Notes under the pieces: generated by a model
The model's input: only the letters and a program-made list of their open reading frames with translations
The model's database searches: none
What the model was told of the DNA's origin: nothing
Translations under genes and position numbers: made by a program
In this document: positions 33,912 through 62,305 of the stretch, one piece after another
Layout of the letters: every line of letters starts with the position of its first letter
Position numbering within the stretch: the stretch's first letter is position 1
Origin: a virus
IMG/VR virus record: IMGVR_UViG_3300042520_001767
Span: 130,625 to 194,624 of that record
Length of the DNA: 64,000 bases
Direction: 5' to 3' (one strand)

Positions 33912-33962
33912 GTAGATATGATACGGGTCGCATAATATGTGAGAGAGTAGACTCCGTCACGC
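33912..33962 (+). ncRNA. Repeated structured ncRNA candidate, copy 1
   Basis: Follows TATCTTTG; core ACGGGTCGCATAATATGTGAGAGAGTAGACTCC. Confidence 0.6.
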
Positions 33963-34021
33963 ATTATAAAAAAAAGGTTAAAAACAAAAAAAAATCCTTA
34001 TAGTAAGGATTTTTTAGTTTT

Positions 34022-34561
34022 TTATCTGAAAGGGTTAAAATCGGGTTGTTTTTGGTTTTCTATTTCGTTAATATCTATTGATATATTAAAAAAGTTTTCA
34101 GTTGGTGTGTTAATTCCTTTTACTAGTTCATCAGTAACATTTTGATAAATTGGTTTTAAGTTTTCAAAACTTGCACCACAATAAAGCACATTTGCTTTGA
34201 TATCTAGTTTTACCATTATATATGCTAATTCATAAAAGTATTTGATTTCATCAGTAGTGAAATTTTCAAAATTCTCATTTATAAAATTCATTACTTTGTT
34301 AATATTTTTTGCACCATTAAAATCAAAATGAAACAATTTAACGTGGTTATTTTCGTCAAAGTATCTAACAATTAGATTACTATAAGTAGATTTTTTTGGA
34401 GCGTTTAAACGTCCTGTTTTTGGGTTTATAGTTGTTTTAATAGTTCTATATCCTTTTTTAGAATTAAACTCTAATTCATCATATAAAGTCGTTTTTAAAT
34501 TGAAACTATAAGGATAATTTTCTACTACTATTTTTTCTTGTGTTTTGATAAGATTTTCCAT
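34022..34561 (-). CDS. Hypothetical protein (about 179 aa)
   Basis: Start MENLIK after the module. Confidence 0.8.
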   Translation of the reverse strand: MENLIKTQEKIVVENYPYSFNLKTTLYDELEFNSKKGYRTIKTTINPKTGRLNAPKKSTYSNLIVRYFDENNHVKLFHFDFNGAKNINKVMNFINENFENFTTDEIKYFYELAYIMVKLDIKANVLYCGASFENLKPIYQNVTDELVKGINTPTENFFNISIDINEIENQKQPDFNPFR

Positions 34562-34676
34562 TTTGTGTGTTTTTAATTGGTTACTAATTTTTAACATTAC
34601 AAATATAGGATAATATTTTTAATATCCTACTATAAATAAATTTTTTTTATAACTTTTTTTATTTTATATTTGTAGT

Positions 34677-34730
34677 GTTGAAAGAGTAACGGGTCGCATA
34701 ATATGTGAGAGAGTAGACTCCATCCAGGTG
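34677..34730 (+). ncRNA. Repeated ncRNA candidate, copy 2
   Basis: Follows TATATTTG; core identical to copy 1. Confidence 0.6.
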
Positions 34731-34844
34731 TTATTTTTTTTTATATATGTATATAATTTTTTAACATAATTTTAACATTTAATTTTTGGTTTATTGGTTT
34801 AATTGTTTTATATTTGTAATCTAATCAATTAACACATACACACT

Positions 34845-35096
34845 ATGAACAAATTACAACTATCAATGTTTTTAACTAACCAAATTTTGGTTATAAAGTC
34901 AGGTATGGAATTAACTGCTCAAGTTAAAAAATTTAGAGTAGCTTTTAAAGAAATGGTGGGTTTACCAAAGAGAGCAAGTCATTTGCAAGTATTGGGTGCT
35001 ATTAGAGAGGTTTATATCGCCAATGGTATTGAGGCTGAGTTTATCGAAAAGATAAAAAGACATAAAGCAGAACATTTATTAGAAGCCCTTGTATAA
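34845..35096 (+). CDS. Hypothetical protein (83 aa)
   Basis: Behind a plus-strand promoter/leader copy; terminator AAGCCCTTGTATAAGGGTTTTTT at its end. Confidence 0.8.
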   Translation: MNKLQLSMFLTNQILVIKSGMELTAQVKKFRVAFKEMVGLPKRASHLQVLGAIREVYIANGIEAEFIEKIKRHKAEHLLEALV

Positions 35097-35144
35097 GGGT
35101 TTTTTTTTGTTTTGTATGTACACTATTGTGTCCATAGGTGTTAT

Positions 35145-35245
35145 AAAAAATATAAGGTAGGTTGGAGCTGAACCTTTGGTTCTACGCCTGGCGGCAGTCT
35201 ACTCTATCAAGTTATTAGCTCGACCCGTCTTGATTTCTCATTGAC
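35145..35245 (-). ncRNA. Repeated ncRNA candidate, copy 3 (long form, minus strand)
   Basis: Reverse complement ACGGGTCGAGCTAATAACTTGATAGAGTAGACTGCCGCCAGGCGTAGAACCAAAGGTTCAGCTCC...TTTTTT. Confidence 0.6.
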
Positions 35246-35307
35246 TTAGTAAAGATAGGTAAAATAAATGTAACCACCAAATTTATTGGTGGTTATTTTT
35301 ATTTATT

Positions 35308-35502
35308 TTAGACAAATTCTATATTGTTTTCAAAACTTGAATATCTTTCGCCTTTTGAAGTTTCGTAAGTAAACTCTTTATTACAAACGTCATCACTTTG
35401 TAAGTTTACTATTTTTACGTTATTCTCTTTAAGGTTACCACTTAAAAAAGATACTAGAGTTTTGTTGTTGAATGCTTCAGTTAAGATTTTTCTATTTGTC
35501 AT
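35308..35502 (-). CDS. Hypothetical protein (64 aa)
   Basis: ORF after module. Confidence 0.7.
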   Translation of the reverse strand: MTNRKILTEAFNNKTLVSFLSGNLKENNVKIVNLQSDDVCNKEFTYETSKGERYSSFENNIEFV

Positions 35503-35581
35503 GATGTCTTTGTGTTTTTGATTACATTACAAATATAGTGAAAATAAAATAACCTACCAAATAAATGATAGGTTATTTTTA

Positions 35582-35773
35582 TTATACTTCTGTTAGTGTT
35601 TTTCTATCTAGTGTTACATTATCTATACCACCATCATCAAAATGTGTTTCTAAATAAATTTCTTCATCATTGTAGTCAGACATTTTGATTTCTACAAAAT
35701 CATCATATTGATTTTCTAATTCAGCTATTCGTGTAGTTAACTTGGTTAATTCATCTTTAGTTAATTTTTCCAT
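35582..35773 (-). CDS. Hypothetical protein (63 aa)
   Basis: ORF after module. Confidence 0.7.
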   Translation of the reverse strand: MEKLTKDELTKLTTRIAELENQYDDFVEIKMSDYNDEEIYLETHFDDGGIDNVTLDRKTLTEV

Positions 35774-35923
35774 TTTTTTTTGATTTTAATTGATATATGT
35801 AAAGATAGTTAAAATAAACTAATTAACCAAATTTATTTGTGGGTAAAAACTATAATATTTAATACAATAAATAATATAACTAGACCCCAAATTTTAATAT
35901 TTTCTTTTGTTGATTTTTTCATT

Positions 35924-36121
35924 TTATACATTTTCTGCGTGTTTTAATAATTCGATTGAATCAGAGATAAATTCTTCATCAGTCATGTTAATCATTTCTT
36001 CTGCGGTTTCAGCATCCATCCAAAATGTTATTTTATCATCTTTGGAGATATTAAATAAACCTTCTGCCATCATACTACCTTTATTCAATTGGAATCCGTT
36101 AACGTCTCTTAATACTTTCAT
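35924..36121 (-). CDS. Hypothetical protein (65 aa)
   Basis: ORF after module. Confidence 0.7.
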   Translation of the reverse strand: MKVLRDVNGFQLNKGSMMAEGLFNISKDDKITFWMDAETAEEMINMTDEEFISDSIELLKHAENV

Positions 36122-36208
36122 GGTGTTTATGTGTTAATTGATTAGATTACAAATGTAATAAAAATAATCCATATTACCAAACATAATATGGATTATTTTT
36201 AATTTATT

Positions 36209-36520
36209 TTACCATGTAATATAAACATAGTAATTTGGTGAACATATAACGACCTTAAAACCTTTTTCTTCTAAATAAGGTTTCATTTTGGTTTCAACTA
36301 GGTTTTGTAAATTACCATTACCACCAAATTCTTCTTTAACCACTTTATTGTTGGTGTGTTCTAATGTATAACTACCGATTGATATTTCATTACCTTTAGA
36401 ATTTTTGGCAACTTGTTCCATTCTTGGATAGAGTACTTCATTATATACTCTATCGAATTTTGGTCTATCAGTATCTAATATTTCAGATACTAAACTTTTT
36501 AATTTTGCAATGTCGTTCAT
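36209..36520 (-). CDS. Hypothetical protein (103 aa)
   Basis: ORF after module. Confidence 0.75.
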   Translation of the reverse strand: MNDIAKLKSLVSEILDTDRPKFDRVYNEVLYPRMEQVAKNSKGNEISIGSYTLEHTNNKVVKEEFGGNGNLQNLVETKMKPYLEEKGFKVVICSPNYYVYITW

Positions 36521-36586
36521 GGTGTTTATGTGTTAATTGATTAGAGTGTAAATATAGTGAATAGTTTTGAATTACACAAATTTATT

Positions 36587-36811
36587 TTAGTTTTGATTTA
36601 CATTTGGTTCAAATCCCCAATGTGTTCTCATTTCGTTATTTAGGTGTTCGATATCAAAACCTAATAAATTACCTATTTCAAATTTATAACCATAATCATA
36701 ATTAATAAATTTTACAGCTTCAAAACCAAATTGTAATTCTCTTACTCTAATTTCTGAACCAATTGGTTCTATACCTTGTAATGGGTTTTTAAAGAATTGT
36801 TCTATTGTCAT
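36587..36811 (-). CDS. Hypothetical protein (74 aa)
   Basis: ORF after module. Confidence 0.7.
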   Translation of the reverse strand: MTIEQFFKNPLQGIEPIGSEIRVRELQFGFEAVKFINYDYGYKFEIGNLLGFDIEHLNNEMRTHWGFEPNVNQN

Positions 36812-36890
36812 AATATGTTATTTTTTGATTACATTACAAATATAAGAATAATAATCCACACTACCTAATATAATGTGGATTTTTTTTAAT

Positions 36891-37187
36891 TTATTTTCTA
36901 ATTTCATTATAACTTTTCAAATATGAATTGTAGTTTTGTCTTTTGATAACTAACAAATTGTAACCTAAATTCGTTAGTTCATTGTATAGTGGTAATGCTT
37001 GGGGAGTGGTGGCATTTTTAGACGTTTTAAGACAATATTTATAGTCAGCTGAACTATGTTGTCCTATGTGTTGGTATGATGAAACATGACCATTAAAATC
37101 ACAAACTTCGTGAGGGAACAAAGCATAAACTTCGTTATCTTTATTAACTCTAAAAATAACTTCTGTTATGTGTAAATCTTTTTGCAT
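36891..37187 (-). CDS. Hypothetical protein (98 aa)
   Basis: ORF after module; ALFP...Y.HIGQHS motif. Confidence 0.75.
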   Translation of the reverse strand: MQKDLHITEVIFRVNKDNEVYALFPHEVCDFNGHVSSYQHIGQHSSADYKYCLKTSKNATTPQALPLYNELTNLGYNLLVIKRQNYNSYLKSYNEIRK

Positions 37188-37273
37188 TGTATTTTATTTT
37201 AATTGGTTAGAGTACAAATATAAGATAAAAAATCCACACTACCTAATATAATGTGGATTATTTTTAATTTATT

Positions 37274-37555
37274 TTATGATTCCCAAAACATAATGGTTCC
37301 TGGGTCGTTCCATTCAGCATACCATCCGTGTTTGGTTAATAGTTTCATAAACTCGTTATGTACTCCAAAATCGTATCTATTGTGATTTTCAGAGTAGTAG
37401 TTGAATAGGTCGAAACCATCTTTTGCTTTATCTCCATTCTCTCCAGAACTCCAAATTCCACCTTTAGAACCATTGAACTCTTCGGTTGTTCTCATAAACA
37501 AATTTGGATATTTTGTTTCGATTGCTTTCATCATTGCGTTTCTTGTACTTGCCAT
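37274..37555 (-). CDS. Hypothetical protein (93 aa)
   Basis: ORF after module. Confidence 0.75.
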   Translation of the reverse strand: MASTRNAMMKAIETKYPNLFMRTTEEFNGSKGGIWSSGENGDKAKDGFDLFNYYSENHNRYDFGVHNEFMKLLTKHGWYAEWNDPGTIMFWES

Positions 37556-37633
37556 AATCTTAGTGTATTGGTGGTTGCTTCATTGCAACAGTACAAATAT
37601 AAGAATAATAATCCACACTACCAAATTATTTGA

Positions 37634-37831
37634 TTATAATTTTGATATAAATAATTTTGCTTTTGATTCGTGAGCAACTATCTGCCAACCCCAAATTTGA
37701 TATTCAAATGTTTTAGGTCTATCATTCCAATATTGTTTAGGTTCTGTTTGAGAATCTATATACTTTTGTATATAACCATTTACCACCCTATAACCTAATG
37801 ATTCCAAATATTCTTTATCTTTATCATCCAT
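37634..37831 (-). CDS. Hypothetical protein (65 aa)
   Basis: Start MDDKDK after promoter. Confidence 0.6.
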   Translation of the reverse strand: MDDKDKEYLESLGYRVVNGYIQKYIDSQTEPKQYWNDRPKTFEYQIWGWQIVAHESKAKLFISKL

Positions 37832-37912
37832 AGTACAAAGATAAGACATTATTTTTTAATATCCTAATACATTTTATTTTTTTTTAAACTTTTTTTATCT
37901 TATCTTTGTAAT

Positions 37913-37992
37913 GTTGAAAGGGTAACGGGTCACGACAAGTGAAAGAGTAGACTCCCACCAGGTGTAGAACCAAAGGTTCAGCTCCGTCACGT
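37913..37992 (+). ncRNA. Repeated ncRNA candidate, copy 4 (long form)
   Basis: ACGGGTCACGACAAGTGAAAGAGTAGACTCCCACCAGGTGTAGAACCAAAGGTTCAGCTCCGTCACG. Confidence 0.6.
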
Positions 37993-38089
37993 CTATATGT
38001 GAACTGCTACCGACAAGGCACAAAAAAAGGTAGGACACAACCCCTACCTTTCCCACGTTAATTACTTAACGTTTCACCAATTAAACATA

Positions 38090-38290
38090 TTATTCTATTC
38101 CGTATTTATTATATTTTTTCTTTGATTTTTCATCAAGGATAATCGCCACTACTCCAACACCACCAAACGCCATAAAAAATGATACTGCTTCGATTATTGT
38201 TTGATTTGAAATTGCATTAAACATTACTACCATTGAGGTAATCATTCCAACGATTGTGATAACTTGTAAAAATAAGATTGATTTTTTCAT
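38090..38290 (-). CDS. Small two-TM membrane protein (66 aa)
   Basis: Two hydrophobic helices; tandem paralog of the next gene. Confidence 0.75.
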   Translation of the reverse strand: MKKSILFLQVITIVGMITSMVVMFNAISNQTIIEAVSFFMAFGGVGVVAIILDEKSKKKYNKYGIE

Positions 38291-38338
38291 GATGTTTGTT
38301 TTTTGATTAGATTGTAAAGATAAGAAAAATAAATTAGA

Positions 38339-38533
38339 CTACCAAATATTTTTTTCTTTTTCTTTTTGTATTTCTTCAATTATAATTGCTACAATTGCTA
38401 CACAACTAAAAACAGCAAAAGTAATAATTGATATAATTAATACATTATCGTTATTGGTTGTAAACATAAAAAACATAGATGTTATTAACCCAATTAAAGA
38501 AATGATTTGTAAAGGTAAGATAAATTTTTTCAT
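38339..38533 (-). CDS. Small two-TM membrane protein (64 aa)
   Basis: MKKFILPLQII...ITSM resembles MKKSILFLQVI...ITSM. Confidence 0.75.
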   Translation of the reverse strand: MKKFILPLQIISLIGLITSMFFMFTTNNDNVLIISIITFAVFSCVAIVAIIIEEIQKEKEKNIW

Positions 38534-38606
38534 TATATTTGTATTTTTATTAGATTGTAAAGATAAGGATAATATTTCTATTATCCAAATCTTTTTTTAA
38601 TTATTT

Positions 38607-38828
38607 TTATTTTAATTTTGCAACAAAATAATTAACAACATCAGGTATATATTTTTTATAGTATGGTTGATTATCCATGCACCATTCTTTTACTTGTTGT
38701 TTTGTGGTAAAAGGTTTAACGTGTGATTGATTACGCATAATCATATCAAACATTGGTTCTAAATCGTTGATAAATGCACCAACCGTCCAACCCTCCCAAA
38801 TGTGTTTGTCTAAATTAATTTTTGCCAT
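38607..38828 (-). CDS. Hypothetical protein (73 aa)
   Basis: ORF after module. Confidence 0.75.
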   Translation of the reverse strand: MAKINLDKHIWEGWTVGAFINDLEPMFDMIMRNQSHVKPFTTKQQVKEWCMDNQPYYKKYIPDVVNYFVAKLK

Positions 38829-38888
38829 AATATATGTGTGTTAATTGATTACATTACAAATATAAGACTTTAATTTGATATAACCTAA

Positions 38889-39047
38889 TTAATATCTAAA
38901 AACTTTTGGTCTTATTCTTTTTTTTAAACCAACTTCCGAACACTTCATACATTGTTGTTTTCCGTTATCGTGTTTTACAATAACAATATCAAAACCGTGA
39001 TGTAATACTTCAACTTGTGTTTGAGTTCCAACGATTATAACTTTCAT
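38889..39047 (-). CDS. Hypothetical protein (52 aa, not in track)
   Basis: Manual: MKVIIVGTQTQVEVLHHG... after module. Confidence 0.55.
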   Translation of the reverse strand: MKVIIVGTQTQVEVLHHGFDIVIVKHDNGKQQCMKCSEVGLKKRIRPKVFRY

Positions 39048-39119
39048 AGTGTGTTTTGATTAGATTACAAATATAAGATAAAAAAATAAGACTACCAAAT
39101 AATGATAGTCTTTTTTTAA

Positions 39120-39452
39120 TTATTCTCTTAATAATTCTTTCAATTTTTGAATTGCTTTTTTATCATTACCGCCAATATGCCAATCGGTAATTTTGGTTTT
39201 TGGTAAACCACTTGAACCATTGTAATTTTTACCATCTTTCCAATTGTATATGGTTGCAACCGTGCCATCAGCAAATTCAATTTCCCATTCAGCATCTACC
39301 TTGTAACCATCGCCATCATGTGGTTTTCCAAATAACGCTTTAAGTTCAGCATAGGTAGCTGTAATTGAACCTTGTAAATGAGTTCCGTTACAATCAATAC
39401 TTTTGTCATTGTGAGTGAAAAAAGTAGCTTTTTTTGTGATTTTCTTTAACAT
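39120..39452 (-). CDS. Hypothetical protein (110 aa)
   Basis: ORF after module; FGKP...DG.K.DAEW motif. Confidence 0.8.
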   Translation of the reverse strand: MLKKITKKATFFTHNDKSIDCNGTHLQGSITATYAELKALFGKPHDGDGYKVDAEWEIEFADGTVATIYNWKDGKNYNGSSGLPKTKITDWHIGGNDKKAIQKLKELLRE

Positions 39453-39519
39453 AGTTTCTTTGTTTTAATTGATTAGATTACAAATATAAGGATAAGTTTT
39501 GATATATGCAAATAATTTT

Positions 39520-39765
39520 TTAATTATTTTCTAAACAAGTACCAAAAAAGTCAATTTCTGTTTCTGGATATTGTTTATCTAAATACATATTTAGTGTATT
39601 TAGATTTCTAAATCTTTTTATCGTTTCTTTATCCGACCAAGAATCTTGGAATTCATATTCTTTAATAATAGCGACATAACCACCTTTGAATATTTTACCT
39701 TTGTTAGGTATTAATAAAGTGTTATCAGTCAATACGTTTTCTCTTAAACAAAATTCATTTACCAT
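39520..39765 (-). CDS. Hypothetical protein (81 aa)
   Basis: ORF after module. Confidence 0.75.
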   Translation of the reverse strand: MVNEFCLRENVLTDNTLLIPNKGKIFKGGYVAIIKEYEFQDSWSDKETIKRFRNLNTLNMYLDKQYPETEIDFFGTCLENN

Positions 39766-39852
39766 GATAAGTGTGTGTTAATTGATTACATTACAAATAT
39801 AAGACTTTAATTTGATATAACCTAATTTATTATCGGTTATTTTTATGTGTAA

Positions 39853-40257
39853 TTACATTTCTAAAAGTTGATTATAAAAATCAATTGTTATTTTCCTATC
39901 TTTTGTACAATAATCAGTTAGATAATCTAAATAATTTCTAAAATACATATTATTGTTTAATTTACCTCTATATCTTTTAAAATGTTCTAAGTCTTCTCTA
40001 CTTAAATTTAATTTATCACATTCACTGATAACAAGTTTTTGACCTCTAGCTAAAACTCCAAATCTTTGTTGTAGTGCAATTTCATTTTTTGTGAAAGTAG
40101 GTGTATTATTTTGACTATGTGATGTACCACGACCAAAAGTAAAAAAGCTATTTATTATATTGCTTTCAGTACCTTTAAAACAATCCACCCAACGCCCACA
40201 TTTAGATATAATAAAACCAACTTTAATGCCCTCATTATTTATATATGTTGTTTTCAT
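39853..40257 (-). CDS. Hypothetical protein (about 134 aa)
   Basis: Start MKTTY after leader. Confidence 0.75.
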   Translation of the reverse strand: MKTTYINNEGIKVGFIISKCGRWVDCFKGTESNIINSFFTFGRGTSHSQNNTPTFTKNEIALQQRFGVLARGQKLVISECDKLNLSREDLEHFKRYRGKLNNNMYFRNYLDYLTDYCTKDRKITIDFYNQLLEM

Positions 40258-40387
40258 AAAATTATATTTGATTAGATTACAAATATAAGACATTAAATTG
40301 ATATATGCAAATAATAAGTGAAAATAAATAATAAATTATTTTGCTATTTTATTTGGTAGATTAAAAAAGAATTCTTATATTTGTAAT

Positions 40388-40440
40388 GTAGATAAGATAC
40401 GGGTCACATAATATGTGATAGAGTAGACTCCATCCAGGAA
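40388..40440 (+). ncRNA. Repeated ncRNA candidate, copy 5
   Basis: ACGGGTCACATAATATGTGATAGAGTAGACTCC after TATATTTG. Confidence 0.6.
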
Positions 40441-40474
40441 TATAAATAATAAAAACAACAAAATAAAAAACCCT

Positions 40475-40672
40475 TTAATAAGGGTTTTTAGGTGTGTGTT
40501 TTTTGCCAGTGGTAATATCTACCCATTTTTGGTTTTTCTCTCGTTCAGCGAGCTTATTTACGTTCTTAATCTTATTGTCTGCTTTTTCTTGAGCTTCAGC
40601 TTCAGTCATTCCACATTGTATTGCGAAGTCATAAGTTGATTTTCTTAAAATTTGTTCTACCTTTGCGTTCAT
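40475..40672 (-). CDS. Hypothetical protein (65 aa)
   Basis: ORF after module. Confidence 0.7.
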   Translation of the reverse strand: MNAKVEQILRKSTYDFAIQCGMTEAEAQEKADNKIKNVNKLAEREKNQKWVDITTGKKHTPKNPY

Positions 40673-40946
40673 AGTATGTGTGTGTTAATTGATTAGATTA
40701 CAAATATAGTAATTAGTTTTGGATTACGCAAATAAATCACTATTTATTTTTAATTTATTTTTTTGTGTTATTTTATTTGGTATATTGAAAATTAATTCTA
40801 TCTTTGCAAACTGTACAATGCTGACTTAAACAAGTTATCAATAAAGATATATACCCTATAACACAAATAATAAAAGGGTATCTATTACGGATACCCTTTT
40901 ATAACTAATCAAACTAAACACAATCAAAACTAAACACAATCAATTT

Positions 40947-41115
40947 TGTGTAAGAGACAGGATTCGAACCTGTAAGTGAACACTTTCTTGTATCGTCATA
41001 CATTACTTGCTATTTAACATTGTAAGGCTCAGATTTGAACTGAAATTCTTCTAGAAAGCGTGATTCCCATTTTCACCATATCTTACAAAGCGTTTACCAT
41101 TTCCGCCACTCGAAC
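40947..41115 (-). tRNA. Degenerate or nested tRNA-like element (pseudo-tRNA)
   Basis: D-arm-like GTGGCGGAAATGGTAAACGC; T-arms TCAGTTCAAATCTGA and ACAGGTTCGAATCCTGT; no canonical anticodon arm. Confidence 0.45.
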
Positions 41116-55089: not shown

Positions 55090-55386
55090 TTATGCTATTT
55101 TATATAACATAAGGGTATAATTTTCAGTACTAGCATACCAACCCCTTTTTATACACCATTCATTGAATTTGATATAAACATCAATATCATATCGCTTATT
55201 ATCATAAATCCTATTATCTAAACTACATATAGGATTTTTATCCTTATCAGTATATGACACATCTGAACCATTTCTTAACCATAAACAATTATAATTGCAT
55301 ATATCATTACTAAACTCAAGTCCATCCTTAATTTCTAAACTAGGAAACCTTTTTTCTAATGCTAAGATTATTTCTGTTTTTGTCAT
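55090..55386 (-). CDS. Hypothetical protein (98 aa)
   Basis: ORF after module. Confidence 0.7.
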   Translation of the reverse strand: MTKTEIILALEKRFPSLEIKDGLEFSNDICNYNCLWLRNGSDVSYTDKDKNPICSLDNRIYDNKRYDIDVYIKFNEWCIKRGWYASTENYTLMLYKIA

Positions 55387-55472
55387 AATGTCTTTGTGTT
55401 TTTGATTACATTACAAATATAGTGAAAATAAAATAACCCACCAAATAAATGATAGGTTATTTTTAATTTATT

Positions 55473-55709
55473 TTATTCTATATTATTACACAATTCTTCC
55501 ATATAATGATTAACATTTTGATAATGGATTTCAGTTTCATTTATAGCTTCAATTTCAGCATATAATTCAGCTGGTAAGTCGTCAGCATCTAAATAGTCTT
55601 TTCGTTCCTTAAAAACGCTCATTTCACGTTCAAATGTTCCTTTAGTGTTTATTTGACTATCCACATAAACTTTAATTAGTTTTTTTTGTTTGTTTGTTAA
55701 ATTTCTCAT
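55473..55709 (-). CDS. Hypothetical protein (78 aa)
   Basis: ORF after module. Confidence 0.7.
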   Translation of the reverse strand: MRNLTNKQKKLIKVYVDSQINTKGTFEREMSVFKERKDYLDADDLPAELYAEIEAINETEIHYQNVNHYMEELCNNIE

Positions 55710-55794
55710 GATTTCTTTGTGTTAATTGATTAGATTACAAATATAAAACAAATAACCCATATTACCAAACATAATATGGATTATTTTAAATTAT

Positions 55795-56310
55795 TTATTT
55801 ATTTTTAATCTCATATTTTTGACTAACCAATAATTGATTAACGTAAACGAAATAATTTTTTTCATTTTCAGTTTTTAAAATATAAGTATAAGATTCATAT
55901 TTATAACCATTGGTTAAACGAATAGCTTTAATTCTTTTGTTTAAATTAACTAATTCATTTCCTCTTAAATCAAAATAACTTTTACCGTCACAATTAAATT
56001 TTTGCCAAGATTTTAAAACTAATTTAGTATCATCCTCGAATAAGAAAATTATTTCGTCATTTTCCATACAATGACCTATCCCAACTGATTTTACAGATGT
56101 ACTGTTATAACTAATTACCCCACCAATAATTTTAAACATTGGTGTAATACTAAAACCTATTTTACCATCTTCACTACATAATAGACGTTCTGATAAAAAT
56201 ATATATTCTTTATCATTCATAACATCTTTTTCGTAGTTTAATTTCAAATTATTTTGGCTAAAACTCAATGTGCTCAATAGTAGTAGAGCTCCTAATAATA
56301 ATTTTTTCAT
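55795..56310 (-). CDS. Secreted protein (171 aa)
   Basis: Signal peptide MKKLLLGALLLLSTLSFS-Q, Bacteroidota type. Confidence 0.75.
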   Translation of the reverse strand: MKKLLLGALLLLSTLSFSQNNLKLNYEKDVMNDKEYIFLSERLLCSEDGKIGFSITPMFKIIGGVISYNSTSVKSVGIGHCMENDEIIFLFEDDTKLVLKSWQKFNCDGKSYFDLRGNELVNLNKRIKAIRLTNGYKYESYTYILKTENEKNYFVYVNQLLVSQKYEIKNK

Positions 56311-56412
56311 AATTTATTTTTGTTTTAATTGATTAGATTACAAAGATAAGAATAATTTTTTAAATTACCAAACTTTTATTGAATTATTTTTTGGTTCATT
56401 GATAGGTTCGTC

Positions 56413-56634
56413 TTAGTCAAATTCCCCATTGTTTTGACAACCCTCATACCATAAGTCGGGACAATCACATTGTGCTAATGTATGTTTGCAACACGCACAC
56501 TCAATGTCTTCATCGTTCATTTCGTGTAATAACACACTACCACAATGTCCACACGTTACAATATTTATATTCGCTAATGCTTGTACTCGGTCTTGTAACG
56601 CTATTTGTTTTTCTGCTAATTGTCTTTTTGTCAT
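56413..56634 (-). CDS. Cys-rich Zn-binding protein (73 aa)
   Basis: CGHC...CACC...CDCPD. Confidence 0.7.
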   Translation of the reverse strand: MTKRQLAEKQIALQDRVQALANINIVTCGHCGSVLLHEMNDEDIECACCKHTLAQCDCPDLWYEGCQNNGEFD

Positions 56635-56678
56635 ATCGTTTGTGTTTTGATTAGTTATTCAAAGATAAGAATTTTATT

Positions 56679-57005
56679 TTAATTAAACAAACAAACTTCC
56701 ATCAAATAATCATGTTGTTCATCACTTAATTTACCAACACTATCATACTCATATTTCTTATGAATATAAACTTCATCAGAAATCTCAACCTTTGTAGTTA
56801 TCGTAATATCCAATAACGCTCCAATAATACTCTCAAATCCCATCCCATCATCTAAACTACCATCTAATAAAGAGTCTTTAGCTTTTTGAATTAACTCTTC
56901 TCTTGTTTTAGTTTTGATTGTTTTAATCGGATAACATCCAACCCCACCACCCCATAAATTTCCCAATACCATTCCTTTCGCTTTGTAACTAATTTTCTTT
57001 GACAT
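56679..57005 (-). CDS. Hypothetical protein (108 aa)
   Basis: ORF after promoter. Confidence 0.7.
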   Translation of the reverse strand: MSKKISYKAKGMVLGNLWGGGVGCYPIKTIKTKTREELIQKAKDSLLDGSLDDGMGFESIIGALLDITITTKVEISDEVYIHKKYEYDSVGKLSDEQHDYLMEVCLFN

Positions 57006-57148
57006 ATTATTTTGTTTTTATTATTAATTCCTTTTAACAAATATAAATAAAATAATCAAATATACCAAACAAATTTTCAATTATTTTTAATTATTTTTTT
57101 TATCATATTTTATTTGGTAATATCAAAACTATTCCCTATCTTTGTAAT

Positions 57149-57213
57149 GTAGATATGATACGGGTCGAGCTAACAACTTGATAGAGTAGACTGCCGCCAG
57201 GCGTAGAACCAAA
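57149..57213 (+). ncRNA. Repeated ncRNA candidate, copy 6
   Basis: ACGGGTCGAGCTAACAACTTGATAGAGTAGACTGCCGCCAGGCGTAGAACC. Confidence 0.6.
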
Positions 57214-57262
57214 TAAAAAATAACCATAAAAAAATAACCCTACCATTATGATAGGGTTATTT

Positions 57263-57664
57263 TTATTCAAATTCACACATTTCTTTTGTTAATAAATTAA
57301 ATTCTTTACCCTCACGAACATACCACTTCTCACCAATGAAAATGTAATCATATTCTTCACCTCTAATTTCTTCTTTGGTTGAATATTCATCTATACATAA
57401 TTCTTCATTTCTATCCCTATGGTAAGCTATAACAACATCAGCTTGCGGAATATCAAACGAATGTGGTTTGGTTGGATTAGGGAATGGTTTTTCTCTTAAA
57501 CTAGATATATCACCCAAACTAATTAAATCATTAACCTTATCAATGGAATCATAATTCTCTAATAATAATCGCCCATTGTTGCTCGGATAACCATCCCAAT
57601 GACAATAAATTGTTTTTATTTTACCATCATTATCTTGTACTGAAATTGTGCTTCTAGTTGCCAT
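57263..57664 (-). CDS. Hypothetical protein (133 aa)
   Basis: MATRSTI...IYCHWDGYP motif common in phage proteins. Confidence 0.8.
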   Translation of the reverse strand: MATRSTISVQDNDGKIKTIYCHWDGYPSNNGRLLLENYDSIDKVNDLISLGDISSLREKPFPNPTKPHSFDIPQADVVIAYHRDRNEELCIDEYSTKEEIRGEEYDYIFIGEKWYVREGKEFNLLTKEMCEFE

Positions 57665-57731
57665 AATATTTTTTGTTTTGATTAGTTATACAAATATAAT
57701 ACTTTTATTTTAATTTACCAAATTTATTTTG

Positions 57732-57953
57732 TTAAAAATACTCTTCTTCATATTGCTCAATTTGAAAATTAATTTCTTCACAAACTCTTTCATTATCAAA
57801 AGTTTTTTCTAAAATATCCATTGCTTGCTCTTCTGTAAGATTACCATCTTTAAATGACTTCACATCATCAATATTATATAGAGTATCTACATAATACCCA
57901 TTCTCTCTTAACACTGCTTTTGCTTTTTCAATTGCTTCTAAATCTCTTACCAT
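57732..57953 (-). CDS. Hypothetical protein (about 73 aa)
   Basis: Start MVRDL after leader. Confidence 0.7.
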   Translation of the reverse strand: MVRDLEAIEKAKAVLRENGYYVDTLYNIDDVKSFKDGNLTEEQAMDILEKTFDNERVCEEINFQIEQYEEEYF

Positions 57954-58034
57954 AATATTTTTGTTTTGATTAGTTATACAAATATAAATAAAATAATCCA
58001 CATTACCAAATATAATGTGGATTATTTTTAATGT

Positions 58035-58163
58035 TTAATACCCACCCGTAAATGTAATTAATATCCCACCATTTTTTTCTACCGATTCAAATGTTACTCC
58101 CGCTTTGATTAATCCCGATAACATGTCATTAAAAGTTTCTGTTGATACAAATAAAGTTCCCAT
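58035..58163 (-). CDS. Small protein (42 aa, not in track), paralog of 43759..43887
   Basis: MGTLFVSTETFNDMLSGLIKAGVTFESVEKNGGILITFTGGY. Confidence 0.75.
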   Translation of the reverse strand: MGTLFVSTETFNDMLSGLIKAGVTFESVEKNGGILITFTGGY

Positions 58164-58243
58164 AGTGTTTGTGTTTATTGATTAGAGTACAAATATAAAA
58201 CAAATAATCCATATTACCTAACATAATATGGATTATTTTTAAA

Positions 58244-58951
58244 TTATTTTTCAATAAGACCTCTCACTGAATTATTACTAATTTCTATCTTTTCAGCCAA
58301 CAAATCTTTTGTGTCACTTTCGGGATTACTCATTATTAATTGCCTTAACATTTGGTCGGTCATCCCAATCTGTTCCAATATGTGTAACATCGTTTCTCCA
58401 TCAACACAATTACCATGGTCAAGCGTTTTAAGTGTTTGTATAACTTCGTTTACCTTGTCAAATGTTTCGGGTTTACTACATTGATATGTTGGTGGTTCTT
58501 TGCAATCACAACATAAATGAACTCCATTTTCCATCTTTGTCATTACAGTTTCTTCTTCTTTTATATTACATTCATCACAAGTCTTATAGGGTATCCCACC
58601 ACTTGATAATTCTTCTTTAACCACAAATAATTCATACCAATTATTTTCAATACATTCAGAATCATTTAAATCCAATGCAACATCAATATCCCTAGCTCCC
58701 CTTAAAATTGAATCATGGTCATTAACACTCATTACAAAGGCTACGTCATTGTCAACACGTTCCGTATAACCACTAATCGCATCATTTATCTCACTAGAGG
58801 TATTTAATACACAAATCATTCTTTTTTCAATTTCAGAAATAAGATTAGATAAAGAATCTAAATCACGCCCAACTTCATCATCTAACTCATATAAAGAATA
58901 TTTCTGCATTGTTCCTACTAACTGATTAAAACTTTTTCTTAATGTTCCCAT
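58244..58951 (-). CDS. Hypothetical protein with Zn-finger segment (235 aa)
   Basis: CDEC...CCDC. Confidence 0.75.
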   Translation of the reverse strand: MGTLRKSFNQLVGTMQKYSLYELDDEVGRDLDSLSNLISEIEKRMICVLNTSSEINDAISGYTERVDNDVAFVMSVNDHDSILRGARDIDVALDLNDSECIENNWYELFVVKEELSSGGIPYKTCDECNIKEEETVMTKMENGVHLCCDCKEPPTYQCSKPETFDKVNEVIQTLKTLDHGNCVDGETMLHILEQIGMTDQMLRQLIMSNPESDTKDLLAEKIEISNNSVRGLIEK

Positions 58952-59042
58952 AGTGTTTGTGTTTATTGATTAGATTACAAATATAATAATTTTATTTTAA
59001 TCCACCAAATAATTGATAGGTTATTTTTAATTTATTTTAATT

Positions 59043-59306
59043 CTAAAAGTCTTCTAATAATTCCCCATTATAAGGGTCATAAATTGTTCCACTTTCAACT
59101 GCTTCACATTCAACAAGAAACAATCCAGCATCTTGATTATAATACATTTCAACTTCAATAGGGTCATTGGCAAGTATTTCTGCTTCTTCACGTGTTGCAC
59201 CACTATTCATATTTGATAGTACTCTTTGTTCCCACGCTATTGGTGTTTTTTCTTTTGATAAAGTAATCGTTACTGATTCGTAGTTATCTGAATTATTTAA
59301 TTTCAT
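59043..59306 (-). CDS. Hypothetical protein (87 aa)
   Basis: ORF after module. Confidence 0.7.
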   Translation of the reverse strand: MKLNNSDNYESVTITLSKEKTPIAWEQRVLSNMNSGATREEAEILANDPIEVEMYYNQDAGLFLVECEAVESGTIYDPYNGELLEDF

Positions 59307-59381
59307 AGTGTTTGTGTTTATTGATTAGATTACAAATATAATAATTTTATTTTAATATACCAAATTTATTTTTAATTATTT

Positions 59382-59612
59382 TTAATCATTGATATATTCC
59401 CATCCATCCAATTCTTTTAACTCCATTTCTATTGGTCTTAAACCATAAGGTTCAGCATCCAAATAATAATCAAAGATATAACCCAATGGTTCTAACTCAA
59501 TCAATAACCTATCCAACTCAAAATAGGTGTTTTCACAATTTTCATCAAAGGTTTCCAATATAGCTTTTACTTCATCGGGAATCAATTCGGGTGTCTCAAA
59601 TAAATCTTTCAT
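59382..59612 (-). CDS. Hypothetical protein (76 aa)
   Basis: ORF after promoter. Confidence 0.7.
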   Translation of the reverse strand: MKDLFETPELIPDEVKAILETFDENCENTYFELDRLLIELEPLGYIFDYYLDAEPYGLRPIEMELKELDGWEYIND

Positions 59613-59743
59613 ATCTTATATCGTTTTGTTTTAACAAATATAATACTTTTATCCCATTATACCAAATAAAATAACATAAAAAATAATTTATTTTTTTTAT
59701 ATGAAAATTAGGATATGTCATTCATATTACCTATCTTTGTAGT

Positions 59744-59847
59744 GTTGGTGGTAATAACCGAAACAGGTCGCTTAATCAAGTGATAGAGTGGACTGCCGCC
59801 AGGCGTAGAACCAAAGGTTCAGCTCCAACCTACCTTATATTTTTTTT
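59744..59847 (+). ncRNA. Repeated ncRNA candidate, copy 7 (long form)
   Basis: ACAGGTCGCTTAATCAAGTGATAGAGTGGACTGCCGCCAGGCGTAGAACCAAAGGTTCAGCTCC...TTTTTT. Confidence 0.6.
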
Positions 59848-59943
59848 ACCATATAACAAAAAAATTTGCAAAGATAAGAAATAAATCCCACCTTTGCAAA
59901 TAAAGTTATTAACAAGGGGAATATTTCATCCCCTTGATTATTG

Positions 59944-60831
59944 TTAATAATTTAAAGCAAATTCCAAACTTGCTTGGTTCATATTATATCCATTACCTTG
60001 AAGTAAGGTTTCAATCTTTCCATTTTCACGTTTAGGACTTGATAATTCGTGTGTAGTGTAATATGTGATTCCACTATGTAAACCCCATAATGTGTTACCT
60101 TTATCATTCATTTCACGCTCAATAGAATTATATAAAGATTCCATTTTGTTTATACTACGTGTAGCCTTATCTGCTAAATCATTTACACTAGTATAAACCT
60201 TATCAAAACCTAATAAGTGTTTAACCATTTTATGTGCTAAATCACGTGTAATTTCAGTACTAGCAAAATCATTGTATAATTGAATTTGTTTCATACTTTC
60301 ATTTAAAGCAGTCTCAATCAAAAAGGGAATTTCTTTTATCCTACGCTCTAGGCTTGCAGTATGTCTAAACTTACTTTGACCACTCTTATAAAACATATAA
60401 AATTGGTTTTGACAACTCATTGTCAAATCACCAATACCAACCGATAACCCAGTACTACCATCATTACTATCTACAATAGTAATGTACTTTTTAATAACAT
60501 CATTACCTACTCTACCATCACCATTAATAGATAATTGTAAAAATACTTTACGTCCACCATTCAACGCACCACCTTTAGTAACCTCAATATCACTACCGAA
60601 TGGCTCAATACCACGCAATACCAAATCTACAATCTCTTCATTCTGTGATACAGAATATCCCTCCTTAACTGTATTAATAACCTCATTGGTCTTGCTATTA
60701 ATAAGACCAAAATAATCACTAGGTACATAAAGACCATTAGAATTTAATGCCATCATTGGTGCTTTTTCAATAGTGAAATCTAAACCATTGTTTAATAAAA
60801 TTTCCTGCAATTTTGAGCTTTGTGTATTCAT
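59944..60831 (-). CDS. DUF932/DUF945-like protein
   Basis: Y...QNEE, G.L.GGRKVF, NDGS, C.NQ, RHT, TLWG motifs. Confidence 0.75.
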   Translation of the reverse strand: MNTQSSKLQEILLNNGLDFTIEKAPMMALNSNGLYVPSDYFGLINSKTNEVINTVKEGYSVSQNEEIVDLVLRGIEPFGSDIEVTKGGALNGGRKVFLQLSINGDGRVGNDVIKKYITIVDSNDGSTGLSVGIGDLTMSCQNQFYMFYKSGQSKFRHTASLERRIKEIPFLIETALNESMKQIQLYNDFASTEITRDLAHKMVKHLLGFDKVYTSVNDLADKATRSINKMESLYNSIEREMNDKGNTLWGLHSGITYYTTHELSSPKRENGKIETLLQGNGYNMNQASLEFALNY

Positions 60832-61078
60832 AATATATAGTGTTTGATTAATTGATTAATTTTCTACTCTACAAATATAAAACATTTATTCAATTCAACA
60901 AAATAATTTAACACTTATTTTTATTCTTTTACATTATTCTTAGTAAATAACCATTATCATTACGAATAATATAATGAACCCCATACCTATATTCTAGTTT
61001 TATTGAATTATTCGCAATAAATCAAAAATAACCACTATTTTATTTGGTAGATTAAAAACTATTCCCTATCTTTGTAAT

Positions 61079-61144
61079 GTAGATAAGATACAGGTCGCTT
61101 TATCAAGTGAAAGAGTAGACTCCACCATACCTTATATTTTTTTT
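61079..61144 (+). ncRNA. Repeated ncRNA candidate, copy 8
   Basis: ACAGGTCGCTTTATCAAGTGAAAGAGTAGACTCC...ACCTTATATTTTTT. Confidence 0.6.
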
Positions 61145-61225
61145 ATATGTGAAAATTAAAAATGCAAAATAAGACTATAATTTAATATAGTCTTATTTTG
61201 CATTTTAAGGTACTTTTAAGATACG

Positions 61226-62047
61226 TTAAACCAATTCCGATACTTGGCTTTCAATAGACTTATAAACGCTATCTATAGAGCTAAAAATAGCATCTATATT
61301 ATTTTTAGTGTCAATAACAAAACCACTAGAAAAAGCTAATTTGTTTTTTTCTGAACCACCACTACCCGTCATTTTTTTATACTTTAATCCTACAATAACA
61401 TTTTTTTTATCCAAAAAACGTAAATCATCAGCATCGCCATTAATAACCTCAAAACCATTGTAAGAAGTTGGTAATTTGTCAAATACCATAGCTACATTAA
61501 AACCACGTTTTAATAATTCCATTGCCTTGGTATCGTTAGACTCACTACGACTAAAAGTTAAATGATAATTATTTGGTAACACTTTATCAAAACGTAAATA
61601 ATTTTTTGTATAATCATAAAATTGTACGTCAGGAAACATTTCAAAAATGTTTTTAGTGTTATTATCAAATACCCTATATTTCTCAAAAGGTAAATCACTA
61701 GTGCCATTTAATCTAATAGTAACAATAGCTTTGCCCTCATTTTTTTTAACCGCTTTGCCAATTTCAGTATGCAATTGATTCATAAACTCAATACGATTAC
61801 TTAAAAAATATTCAGTCTTATTTATACGACCTTGCATTACACTAGTATACATACCACCAAAACCACTACCCACTAAACAACTATCGGCACAACCTTTACT
61901 AGCATGACTACAAACATTAATACCTTTACTATTCAAATTGAAAGGACTCATATACGTAATATAAGTAATATAGCCCAATTTCTCGCCTTTAATGGTTTTT
62001 GCATTGTTAGTACTTAATAACGGTTTTCTTTTTACTGAATTACTCAT
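61226..62047 (-). CDS. Gp88-like protein
   Basis: C..AS.GC...CL, RLNGTSD, VQFYDYTK, YHLTFSRSE, GD..DLRFLD, VGLK.K. Confidence 0.75.
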   Translation of the reverse strand: MSNSVKRKPLLSTNNAKTIKGEKLGYITYITYMSPFNLNSKGINVCSHASKGCADSCLVGSGFGGMYTSVMQGRINKTEYFLSNRIEFMNQLHTEIGKAVKKNEGKAIVTIRLNGTSDLPFEKYRVFDNNTKNIFEMFPDVQFYDYTKNYLRFDKVLPNNYHLTFSRSESNDTKAMELLKRGFNVAMVFDKLPTSYNGFEVINGDADDLRFLDKKNVIVGLKYKKMTGSGGSEKNKLAFSSGFVIDTKNNIDAIFSSIDSVYKSIESQVSELV

Positions 62048-62251
62048 AGTGTTTGTGTTTATTGATTAGATTACAAATATAAGATAAAGTTTTTAATCTA
62101 CAAAATATTTTAACAACTTTTTTAAAATATTTTTTTTACCTTAGTATATAATAAGTTTCTTTATTAATACATTACAAATATAAAACAAAATTATTTAATA
62201 TCCTAATATAAATAATTTTTTTTATAACTTTTTTTTACCTATCTTTGTAAT

Positions 62252-62305
62252 GTACATAAGATACAGGTCGCTTTATCAAGTGAAAGAGTAGACTCCATCC
62301 AAGAC
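62252..62305 (+). ncRNA. Repeated ncRNA candidate, copy 9
   Basis: Core identical to copy 8, after TATCTTTG. Confidence 0.6.

Follow-up and report, generated by a model that had tools for sequence, protein, structure and literature searches.

Several described systems resemble the element reported here in part. In T4-type phages, promoter-early/stem-loop (PeSL) cassettes are repeated promoter-plus-terminator modules that flank small, variable early ORFs in the hyperplastic regions of large myoviruses (PMC2839356, PMC4122927). PeSLs contain no RNA gene, and a text search of the 2014 PeSL paper found no mention of antisense or small RNA. Phages also encode decoy RNAs, such as RNA anti-CRISPRs (solitary repeat units) and pseudo-ToxI. 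These are ORF-less, promoter-driven small RNAs that copy a host repeat and are sometimes present in several copies per genome. The lambda nut and HK022 put elements are short structured RNAs that are encoded just downstream of early promoters, combine a hairpin with a conserved linear part and act on RNA polymerase. In the cis-antisense and type I antitoxin small RNAs of prophages, for example in the SR4/bsrG layout, the small RNA gene is convergent with a protein gene and shares its terminator region.

The sequence analysed here (the window) is a 64,000-nt stretch of the virus record IMGVR_UViG_3300042520_001767, positions 130,625 to 194,624. Its 33-63 kb array contains about 40 genes, each behind TTTGG-N19-TAnnTTTG and a shared TAATCTAATCAAT(T/A)AACACA leader. 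This array of near-identical early promoters and stem-loops flanking small ORFs is built like PeSL cassettes. The PeSL layout describes the context but does not account for an additional divergent, structured transcription unit with a covarying hairpin and an invariant 12-mer. This unit belongs to a widespread RNA family of giant Bacteroidota phages that has not been described.

Nine conserved elements in the window

The original prediction proposed nine dispersed copies of an ORF-less, promoter-driven structured RNA, and this observation is confirmed. All nine sites match TGANAGAGTRGACTSC exactly at the predicted places. The nine copies of TGAnAGAGTRGACTSC compare with 0.13 expected, and none of 100 shuffled sequences reaches nine. 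A covariance model built from relatives recovers exactly these nine at E-values of 1e-24 to 1e-06 (Table 1). It also returns one weak match at 18777-18818 (E 0.0045), which lies inside an ORF, and one at E 0.76.

Table 1. Positions of the small RNA (sRNA) copies and the two linked protein genes in the window. Scores are those of the covariance model.
Feature	Position (strand)	Promoter box	Core	Form and 3' end	Context	Score (bits)
sRNA copy 1	33900..34018 (+)	33900-33907	33940-33955	RNA from about 33912; short form; runs to the bidirectional terminator hairpin at about 33994-34018		70
sRNA copy 2	34665..34745 (+)	34665-34672	34706-34721	Tail of the CCAGG type; U-run 34736-34744	Back-to-back with the minus-strand promoter at 34600	77
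sRNA copy 3	35144..35257 (-)	TATCTTTA at 35250-35257	35194-35209	Long form with the two extra hairpins, then AACCUACCUUAUA and a U-run	The only minus-strand copy; convergent with the + ORF at 34845-35096	28
sRNA copy 4	37901..38050 (+)	37901-37908	37940-37955	Long form plus a conserved 3' extension; ends at terminator hairpin 38028-38050		58
sRNA copy 5	40376..40490 (+)	40376-40383, with a canonical -33 TTTGG	40416-40431	Degenerate tail; terminator hairpin at about 40466-40490		66
sRNA copy 6	57137..57265 (+)	57137-57144	57179-57194 (GACUGC)	Long form truncated inside the second extra hairpin; terminator hairpin at about 57238-57265		39.5
sRNA copy 7	59732..59848 (+)	59732-59739	59781-59796 (GUGGACUGC)	Long form; U-run 59840-59847	Just downstream of the DUF932 gene; faced by a convergent minus-strand promoter box (CAAAGATA on the + strand, 59869-59876)	27
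DUF932 gene (PF06067 / TIGR03299)	59944..60831 (-)			295 aa	Flanked by copies 7 and 8	
sRNA copy 8	61067..61145 (+)	61067-61074, with -33 TTTGG	61108-61123	Typical short form (ACCAUACCUUAUA plus U8)	Between the DUF932 and GP88 genes	66
GP88 gene (PF17338)	61226..62047 (-)			273 aa; invariant C-x6-C-x3-C motif; weak radical-SAM-like predicted fold	Flanked by copies 8 and 9	
sRNA copy 9	62240..62330 (+)	62240-62247	62281-62296	Degenerate tail; no clear terminator	Back-to-back (65 bp) with the minus-strand promoter box at 62175	56

Each copy has a Bacteroidota-type TAnnTTT(G/A) box that ends 4-5 nt before the predicted RNA start, and the conserved core lies about 30-40 nt downstream of the box. 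Eight copies were predicted to lie back-to-back with a minus-strand gene promoter. A minus-strand promoter box lies 57-100 bp upstream of copies 1, 2, 4, 6, 7 and 9, and about 195 bp upstream of copy 8. Only a near-consensus box is seen at copy 5, and copy 3 is the exception. The inner hairpin stays paired, and several copies end in a U-run, as predicted.

Two details of the original prediction are not correct. The proposed pairing of GGTC with GACT is not supported. Relatives show UC..GA changing to UU..AA, CC..GG and CU..AG, so the UC of GGUC pairs with the GA of UGA as the base of the inner hairpin. The short forms had been taken for deletions, but the short form is the family norm. The long-form hairpins are an insertion seen only in this phage and are not the ancestral state.

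Comparison with known RNA families

None of the 4227 models of Rfam 15 has a match at its gathering score anywhere in the window, and there is no match to any known riboswitch in Rfam. At E-values up to 10, searches of 33850-40520 and 59725-59860 return only chance-level hits on terminators or AT-rich flanks. ARAGORN finds no tRNA or tmRNA gene in the window.

A partial likeness to 5S rRNA is present. In both RNAs, a hairpin is followed directly by GAGAGUAG, the 3' strand of loop E next to helix IV in 5S rRNA. Bacteroidota 5S contains GUGGGAGAGUAGGUCG and the element contains GUGAGAGAGUAGACUCC. In three window copies, GCCGCCAG follows at the same spacing as the 3' strand of 5S helix I, but this part occurs only in this phage. 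Local alignment against 22 Bacteroidota 5S sequences, which share the GAGAGUAG string, gives only marginal scores (p from 0.003 to 0.3). The 5S covariance model (RF00001) has no match at E-values up to 10 in two phage contigs or in a 136-nt search around copy 7. The opposing strand of loop E and helices II and III are absent.

The conserved core is nearly confined to phages. The core pattern gives 29 hit loci in 185,579 bacterial and archaeal species genomes. Only 4 copies are true matches. All four are on three small MAG contigs of likely phage origin and none lies in a repeat array. The core also has no counterpart in 151 Bacteroidota genomes. It therefore does not mimic a host CRISPR repeat or a ToxI-type antitoxin. 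ToxI-like antitoxins form tandem direct repeats of about 36 nt, whereas the copies in the window are 0.4-17 kb apart, each has its own promoter, and their hairpins differ from copy to copy.

Structure and conservation of the RNA family

The family comprises 124 covariance-model matches across two search sets (66, including the nine of the window, and 58) in viral and metagenome contigs from lakes and oceans. It occurs in phages of roughly 330-360 kb, with 2-13 copies per giant phage contig that are always clustered. A promoter box lies at a fixed distance in all nine window copies and in the 38 first-collected family members, which were selected for having such a box. The -33 TTTG is often present.

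The predicted RNA is about 65-140 nt long. It has a weak 5' hairpin (P1), a conserved ACGGG linker and a well-supported variable inner hairpin (P3) closed by U-A, C-G and R·U pairs. These are followed by a nearly invariant segment, (N)AGAGUAGACUCC, which has no supported pairing, and by a C/A-rich tail (CC-NNC-N4-C-YUAUA). The P3 pairs covary in two separate sequence sets, A4 and A7. In A4, pair 53-100 is UA in 53 and CG in 7 sequences, and pair 54-99 is CG in 47, UA in 8 and UG in 2, with no unpaired cells. In A7, pair 48-85 is CG in 28, UA in 19 and UG in 4. None of 500 shuffles reaches the observed covariation score, and slid controls collapse. The neighbouring pair is G·U in 38 of 56 sequences. 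This pair would be C·A on the other strand, which marks the + strand as the RNA strand. Differences in P3 length are not multiples of three, which is not consistent with a coding sequence. Single-copy folding energies are unremarkable (z from -0.15 to -2.9) and P1 is thermodynamically marginal. The 12-nt segment AGAGUAGACUCC shows no variation, so for this segment alone selection at the RNA level cannot be separated from a DNA-level site.

A run of six or more T residues occurs within 32 nt in 40 of 114 copies, against a background of 9.8% (3.6-fold enrichment). The other copies run on to the terminator shared with the convergent neighbouring gene. There are two tail classes. One is usually followed by a U-run, and the other more often runs on to a distal terminator, with exceptions. 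With their own promoter, no ORF and a U-run or terminator, the units have the layout of bacterial-type small RNA genes.

Genomic context

The RNA genes lie opposite to the flanking early genes, usually back-to-back with the promoter of the neighbour. Flanking genes are on the opposite strand in the window and in the sequences designated L003, L014, L132, L133 and L134, so the arrangement is not that of a riboswitch aptamer upstream of a regulated gene. A divergent promoter box is present in 58 of 93 copies, with spacing peaks near 65 and 97 bp. Convergent promoters are not enriched overall (23 of 114 copies, against 17% background).

The RNA genes flank DUF932 and GP88 genes, two highly conserved genes of unknown function. 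This linkage is the strongest clue to the role of the RNA and was not part of the original prediction. In the two complete giant phage genomes that have only two copies, the sRNAs flank DUF932 (genome G049) and GP88 (genome G048). The same order is seen in the window, in G002, in G047 and in a 331-kb NCBI contig. In all, 25 of 69 RNA-bearing loci carry DUF932 or GP88 directly beside the RNA on the opposite strand, down to 42-50% protein identity. Both proteins stay at 60-85% identity across the listed homologues. However, phages with 9-13 copies place most of them beside unrelated small genes, so the RNA is not tied only to DUF932 or GP88. No RNA-binding fold was found in the predicted structures, but the DUF932 model is poor (pLDDT 66) and the fold matches of GP88 are weak (Z 5-5.8).

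Discussion

The interpretation given in the original prediction is partly supported. Comparative evidence supports an ORF-less, promoter-driven structured RNA gene. No transcript has been seen, as no RNA run contains the region, and 'early and abundant' is inferred from promoter type only. The functions that were proposed, a decoy for a defence protein or an antisense regulator, gain nothing from the tests.

A possible but less favoured alternative is a cis-acting intergenic module. In this view, a short, strongly transcribed unit pointing head-on against the neighbouring genes would block or pair with read-through transcripts from the upstream gene, and would act by interference between divergent or convergent promoters. 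It would insulate single early genes, first of all DUF932 and GP88, and the RNA would be a by-product or a cis-antisense RNA. The opposite orientation, the fixed promoter spacing, the bidirectional terminators shared with the convergent gene and the PeSL-like array are congruent with this view. So is the presence of one unit per intergenic region, on both sides of DUF932 or GP88 even where only two copies exist. Copies on both sides of one gene fit a cis role as well as, or better than, a trans-acting partner. A subset also has a convergent distal promoter, such as the box at 59869, whose transcript would carry the exact complement of the RNA. On the other hand, pure interference or cis-antisense action needs no conserved sequence, yet the 12-mer and its flanking ACGGG stay fixed across phages whose DUF932 proteins are only about 45-50% identical, while the stems covary. 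Copy 2 is followed by a co-directional gene. In contrast to the SR4/bsrG layout, one conserved core is placed beside many unrelated genes, overlap with the neighbouring mRNA is at most the terminator, and no toxin is evident. An element that acts mainly at the DNA level is the least likely alternative. It would be a protein-binding site or a homology patch for recombination that moves DUF932, GP88 and other cassettes between phages, as PeSL motifs do (PMC2839356). Direct repeats flank single genes and copy number varies from 2 to 13 among related phages. However, compensatory changes keep the hairpin while its sequence drifts, and the dominant G·U pair works on one strand only, both of which point to selection on RNA. 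Copies within one genome share a short core with variable stems rather than the long identical stretches of recombination substrates, and their position relative to the promoter is fixed.

Two further readings are unlikely. The first is a base-pairing regulatory RNA with AGAGUAGACUCC as a seed for a conserved host or phage RNA, for example nascent 16S rRNA around GGAGUCUGC, or an mRNA. Hairpins, a conserved segment with no supported pairing and a U-run are typical of bacterial sRNAs. The best duplex in two of four Bacteroidota rRNA operons is the conserved 16S site GGAUYGGAGUCUGCAACUCG, at about -17.6 to -17.9 kcal/mol. In the other two operons this site is weaker than unrelated sites, so the score is within what 6 kb gives by chance. 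The exact 12-mer or its complement is not enriched in 151 Bacteroidota genomes (11 hits, against about 26 for the reversed control). No conserved complementary site is found in DUF932 or GP88 mRNAs from three phages each, or elsewhere in the window, and the A/C-rich leader shared by early mRNAs has no complementarity to the seed. The other reading is a ligand- or protein-responsive attenuator, riboswitch-like or nut/put-like, in which the conserved nucleotides around P3 would form a binding site that overlaps a weak terminator made of the core, the tail and the U-run. Binding would decide whether polymerase stops after about 70 nt or reads on antisense into the neighbouring early gene. Conserved unpaired nucleotides are flanked by variable, covarying stems, the element sits at the very start of the transcript, and there are two tail classes. 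In many copies, the core can pair with its own tail just before the U-run in two registers, UAGAC/GUCUA and GUAG/CUAC, but these hairpins are weak (-2 to -8 kcal/mol). No sense-strand gene or operon lies downstream to be regulated, and there is no sequence likeness to nut or put. No pseudoknot or multi-helix junction is found: permutation tests show no pairing of the tail with the 5' leader, P1 or P3, and no covariation extends the proposed GGG:UCC pairing.

The reading that best fits the data, held tentatively, is that these are genes for a phage-specific structured small RNA. The analysis itself establishes the Bacteroidota host-type promoter at a fixed distance from the conserved RNA start, the order of hairpins, invariant segment and tail, the two kinds of 3' end, the orientation opposite to early genes, and the bracketing of DUF932 and/or GP88 genes across distant giant phages. 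Expression and function are inferred. Host RNA polymerase would make the RNA right after infection. The RNA would act through its invariant segment as the recognition site for a conserved partner, with the hairpins as scaffold and protection. The partner is most likely a protein, and the linked DUF932 or GP88 products are the leading candidates. GP88 looks like a divergent three-cysteine, radical-SAM-like enzyme, so the RNA could be its substrate or guide, although this last step is speculation. If DUF932 or GP88 is the partner, the RNA and the two proteins would form one early module of these giant phages.

Distribution of the RNA family

The motif TGANAGAGTRGACTSC occurs nine times in the window, which has 27.8% G+C. 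Eight copies are on the + strand and one is on the minus strand. Shuffled sequences contain 0.13 copies on average and none of 100 shuffles reaches nine. The window belongs to a phage, as it contains a large terminase gene. Each copy lies behind a TAnnTTT(G/A) box, which is the -7 element of Bacteroidota promoters, and several copies also have a -33 TTTGG. A search of the whole window against Rfam 15 gives no match at gathering scores. At E up to 10, the regions themselves return only chance hits on terminators. ARAGORN finds no tRNA or tmRNA. The observation of nine dispersed copies made in the original prediction is therefore upheld.

An exact-pattern scan of IMG/VR returns 41 loci. About half of these are true relatives, with the same promoter box, the same ACGGGUC, a variable hairpin, the same core and a related tail. 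A covariance model, R1, was built from 14 sequences. In the window, R1 recovers exactly the nine copies, plus one weak match and one match at E 0.76. The weak match (17 bits, E 0.0045) contains GGGGTAGACTCC, lies inside an ORF and has no promoter box. It is probably chance or a decayed copy. When the window and 22 related loci are searched together, R1 finds 66 matches, nine of which are the window's own. These include diverged copies that the exact pattern missed. A metagenome scan gives at least 119 loci from freshwater and marine samples, and R1 confirms 58 more copies in the first 100 of them.

The same core pattern gives 29 loci in a set of 185,579 prokaryotic species with one genome each. 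Only four copies, on three small AT-rich MAG contigs, are real. The exact conserved 12-mer, on either strand, is rarer in 151 Bacteroidota genomes (11 hits) than its reversed control (about 26 hits). The element is therefore specific to phages. Whole-contig searches show 6, 8 and 13 clustered copies in three partial contigs, for which CheckV completeness estimates imply genomes of about 340-360 kb. Two complete genomes of 353 and 362 kb with terminal repeats carry two copies each. The DNA runs that contain the window are all lake-water metagenomes, and no RNA run is listed for the region. There is no nucleotide match for window positions 33500-41000 in 50,697 phage records, and no close DUF932 is found in a cultured Bacteroidota phage.

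Positions of features named in the text
Feature	Sequence	Coordinates	Strand
Large terminase gene with intein	window	2-2476	-
Thymidylate synthase gene	window	11252-12496	-
ClpB-like AAA+ ATPase gene	window	15672-17882	+
ORF containing the weak R1 match	window	17930-18823	
Weak R1 match	window	18777-18818	+
Array of small genes	window	33000-63000	-
46-aa hydrophobic ORF	window	33666-33806	-
Conserved 3' extension	window	37985-38050	
Conserved 3' extension	L003	7543-7600	
Conserved 3' extension	L014	2947-3010	
Gene served by the distal promoter	window	59382-59612	
RNA copy 7	window	59781	
Convergent promoter downstream of copy 7	window	59869-59876	
Distal promoter	window	59869-59905	-
DUF932 gene	window	59944-60831	
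RNA copy 8	window	61108	
GP88 (PF17338) gene	window	61226-62047	-
RNA copy 9	window	62281	

Structure of the RNA

The inner hairpin (P3) is supported by covariation. In the first alignment (A4, 63 distinct rows), the two closing pairs are never unpaired. One is U-A in 53 rows and C-G in 7, and the other is C-G in 47, U-A in 8 and U·G in 2. The inner pairs show up to six pair types. No shuffle of 500 reaches the observed covariation score, and sliding the partners destroys the signal. The separate metagenome alignment (A7, 55 rows) gives the same picture. In both alignments, the UC of GGUC pairs with the GA of UGA. This is not congruent with the original prediction, in which GGUC was proposed to pair with GACU, and that helix is rejected. 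The next pair is G·U in most sequences, so the structure exists only on the + strand RNA. Hairpin lengths differ by amounts that are not multiples of three, which indicates that the element is not coding.

The 5' hairpin (P1) shows several pair types, such as GU..AC with U-A, C-G or A-U inside. It is thermodynamically marginal and imperfectly aligned, and is treated as probable only. A helix between the GGG linker and the UCC of the core shows only one-sided changes. Its extension by the flanking bases does not covary, as C precedes GGG with tail base A (38 copies) more often than with G (19 copies).

The segment (N)AGAGUAGACUCC is nearly invariant. Within the core, GUAGACUCC is essentially fixed, apart from the GACUGC and GUGGACUGC variants of the window. 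The tail has three main versions: CCGACACGUCUAUA, CCAACCUACCUUAUA and CCACCGAACCCUAUA. Several attractive examples of a closing helix between the 5' leader and the tail, found by eye, did not survive a permutation test of own against other tails (p 0.25). Permutation tests also found no pairing of P1 with the tail, P3 with the tail, or P1 with P3 (p 0.45, 0.18 and 0.91, respectively). A mutual-information scan over all column pairs recovers only the known stems, plus correlations within the tail that reflect tail classes.

In many copies, the core can form a weak hairpin with its own tail (UAGAC/GUCUA or GUAG/CUAC) just before a U-run. A run of six or more T within 32 nt follows 40 of 114 copies, compared with 9.8% of random positions. 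The extra hairpins of the long forms, GCCGCCAGGCG and GAACCAAAGGUUC, occur only in this phage among all loci fetched. They are an insertion into the common short form and not the ancestral state, whereas the original prediction read the short forms as likely deletions. Some long predicted transcripts, in the window and in the RNA-bearing loci L003 and L014, carry a conserved 3' extension (..AACUGCU-NCC-GACAAGGCAC-A7-hairpin with loop ACACAAC). In two of these three, the stretch before the A-run repeats the 3' strand of the terminator stem (CUACC / CUCCC), which could form an alternative pairing.

The string 'hairpin + GAGAGUAG' equals the 3' side of 5S rRNA helix IV and loop E. In three window copies, GCCGCCAG follows, as in 5S helix I, but this part is private to this phage. 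The 5S covariance model finds nothing and alignment scores are marginal. Membership in 5S rRNA is rejected, and the resemblance is recorded as a lead only.

Genomic setting

The array contains about 40 small minus-strand genes. Nearly every one has its own TTTGG-N19-TAnnTTTG promoter and a shared, near-identical A/C-rich leader, TAATCTAATCAAT(T/A)AACACA..ATG, with no Shine-Dalgarno sequence. Hairpin terminators sit between the genes. This is the architecture described as PeSL cassettes in T4-type phages (PMC2839356, PMC4122927). The RNA units lie in some of these intergenic regions, on the strand opposite to the flanking genes. The same orientation is found in the RNA-bearing loci L003, L014, L132, L133 and L134. 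In the window, a 46-aa hydrophobic ORF (MKNLINLTLATIGLL...) lies behind the promoter that is back-to-back with RNA copy 1 and is a possible small membrane peptide.

Across the family, a divergent promoter box lies within 130 nt upstream in 58 of 93 copies, with spacing clustered near 65 and 97 bp. A convergent promoter just downstream exists in some copies, such as copy 7, but is not enriched overall. The distal promoter at copy 7 (TTTGCAAAGG...TATCTTTG) is a second promoter for the gene it serves, and its transcript would run antisense through copy 7. The same TTTGCAAAGGTA motif follows the RNA in several other phages (L007, L011, L015, L017, L029 and L040).

Outside the array, the large terminase is interrupted by an intein with a LAGLIDADG domain. 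The ClpB-like AAA+ ATPase also shows a weak intein-splicing hit near its N-terminus. The thymidylate synthase is long (414 aa) for its family and may carry an insertion.

Linkage to DUF932 and GP88

The main new finding is a linkage of the RNA to two protein families. In the window, copies 7 and 8 flank a DUF932 gene and copies 8 and 9 flank a GP88 gene. In the complete 362-kb genome (G049), the only two copies flank its DUF932 gene. In the complete 353-kb genome (G048), the only two copies flank a GP88 gene. The order RNA-DUF932-RNA-GP88 recurs in another RNA-bearing phage sequence (G002), and a further one (G047) shows RNA-DUF932-RNA. An NCBI contig of 331,044 bp (L134) and its relatives show the same layout, and in L134 the module sits within the first 9 kb. 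The size of this contig, and the lake habitat of the DNA runs that contain the window, resemble those of the bS21-encoding Bacteroidetes phages (PMC9723584). A tblastn of both proteins against the 69 RNA-bearing loci, many only 1-5 kb long, finds one or both genes directly beside the RNA, on the opposite strand, in 25 of them. Protein identity falls as low as 42-50%. No conserved complementary site for the RNA is found in DUF932 or GP88 mRNAs from three phages each.

Both proteins are unusually conserved for early phage genes, with 60-85% identity over the 120 homologues listed for each. GP88 has 7,831 relatives at E<=1e-5, of which the 120 listed are all at 70% identity or more. The two proteins are not detectably related to each other. 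DUF932 matches TIGR03299, 'phage/plasmid-like protein', below that model's cut-off. Its structural model is poor and matches no fold. The AlphaFold model of GP88 is fair (pLDDT 81) but has no Foldseek match. Its best VIA-align structural rows are weak (Z 5.0-5.8) and are led by radical-SAM enzymes. GP88 has an invariant C46-x6-C53-x3-C57 motif after the first strand and may be a divergent Fe-S / SAM enzyme. Its language-model look-alikes are DUF7227 and DUF5131.

Interpretation

The analysis itself establishes a phage-specific RNA family with a host-type promoter, a covarying hairpin, an invariant segment with no supported pairing and frequent U-runs. It also establishes clustering in early cassette regions and conserved bracketing of DUF932 and GP88. 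The remainder is inference from sequence: that the RNA is made early by host polymerase, that it works through the invariant segment as a recognition site for a conserved partner, and that the linked proteins are the best candidates for this partner. This reading is preferred tentatively and falls short of being more likely than not. The interpretation in the original prediction is partly supported: an ORF-less, promoter-driven structured RNA gene is supported by comparative evidence, but early abundance is inferred from promoter type only, and the proposed decoy or antisense functions gain nothing from the tests.

The strongest rival, which is less likely but possible, is a cis-acting head-on insulator or antisense unit. 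It explains the orientation and the bracketing, but does not explain why a 12-mer stays fixed while the stems drift. A base-pairing regulator is unlikely, as no conserved target, and no host target or host look-alike of the 12-mer, is found in the sequences searched. An attenuator that decides between a 70-nt stop and antisense read-through is equally unlikely. It fits the overlap of the core and weak terminator, but there is no regulated sense-strand gene and no complex fold. A mainly DNA-level element is slightly less likely again, as it conflicts with the strand-specific G·U pairs and the compensatory changes.

A more speculative possibility, which is unlikely on present evidence, is that the RNA, DUF932 and GP88 form one conserved early-infection machine of giant Bacteroidota phages. 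In this view, the invariant AGAGUAGACUCC segment would be bound, or chemically modified, by the linked proteins, with GP88 as a divergent three-cysteine, radical-SAM-like enzyme. The resulting ribonucleoprotein, or modified RNA, would act on the host at take-over. This would give a first function to DUF932, a family spread through phages, plasmids and integrative elements. A related alternative is that the RNA copies part of the 5S rRNA loop E arm and acts on the ribosome.

Phage-encoded small structured RNAs are known, but they are poorly known outside a few model phages and none is known to have been described for the large freshwater and marine phages of Bacteroidota. The family reported here is new and no family in Rfam 15 matches it. 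A text search of one large survey of viral structured RNAs (PMC10690425) for terms describing this setting found nothing, so that survey neither describes nor excludes it. The R1 covariance model can be used to annotate the family in viromes. The family is common, multi-copy, strongly conserved and specific to phages, and it is physically tied to two very conserved genes of unknown function. One of these, DUF932, is widespread in mobile elements and sits near anti-restriction genes in E. coli prophages. The linkage to DUF932 and GP88 makes the mechanism testable and gives a concrete experimental handle on all three components.
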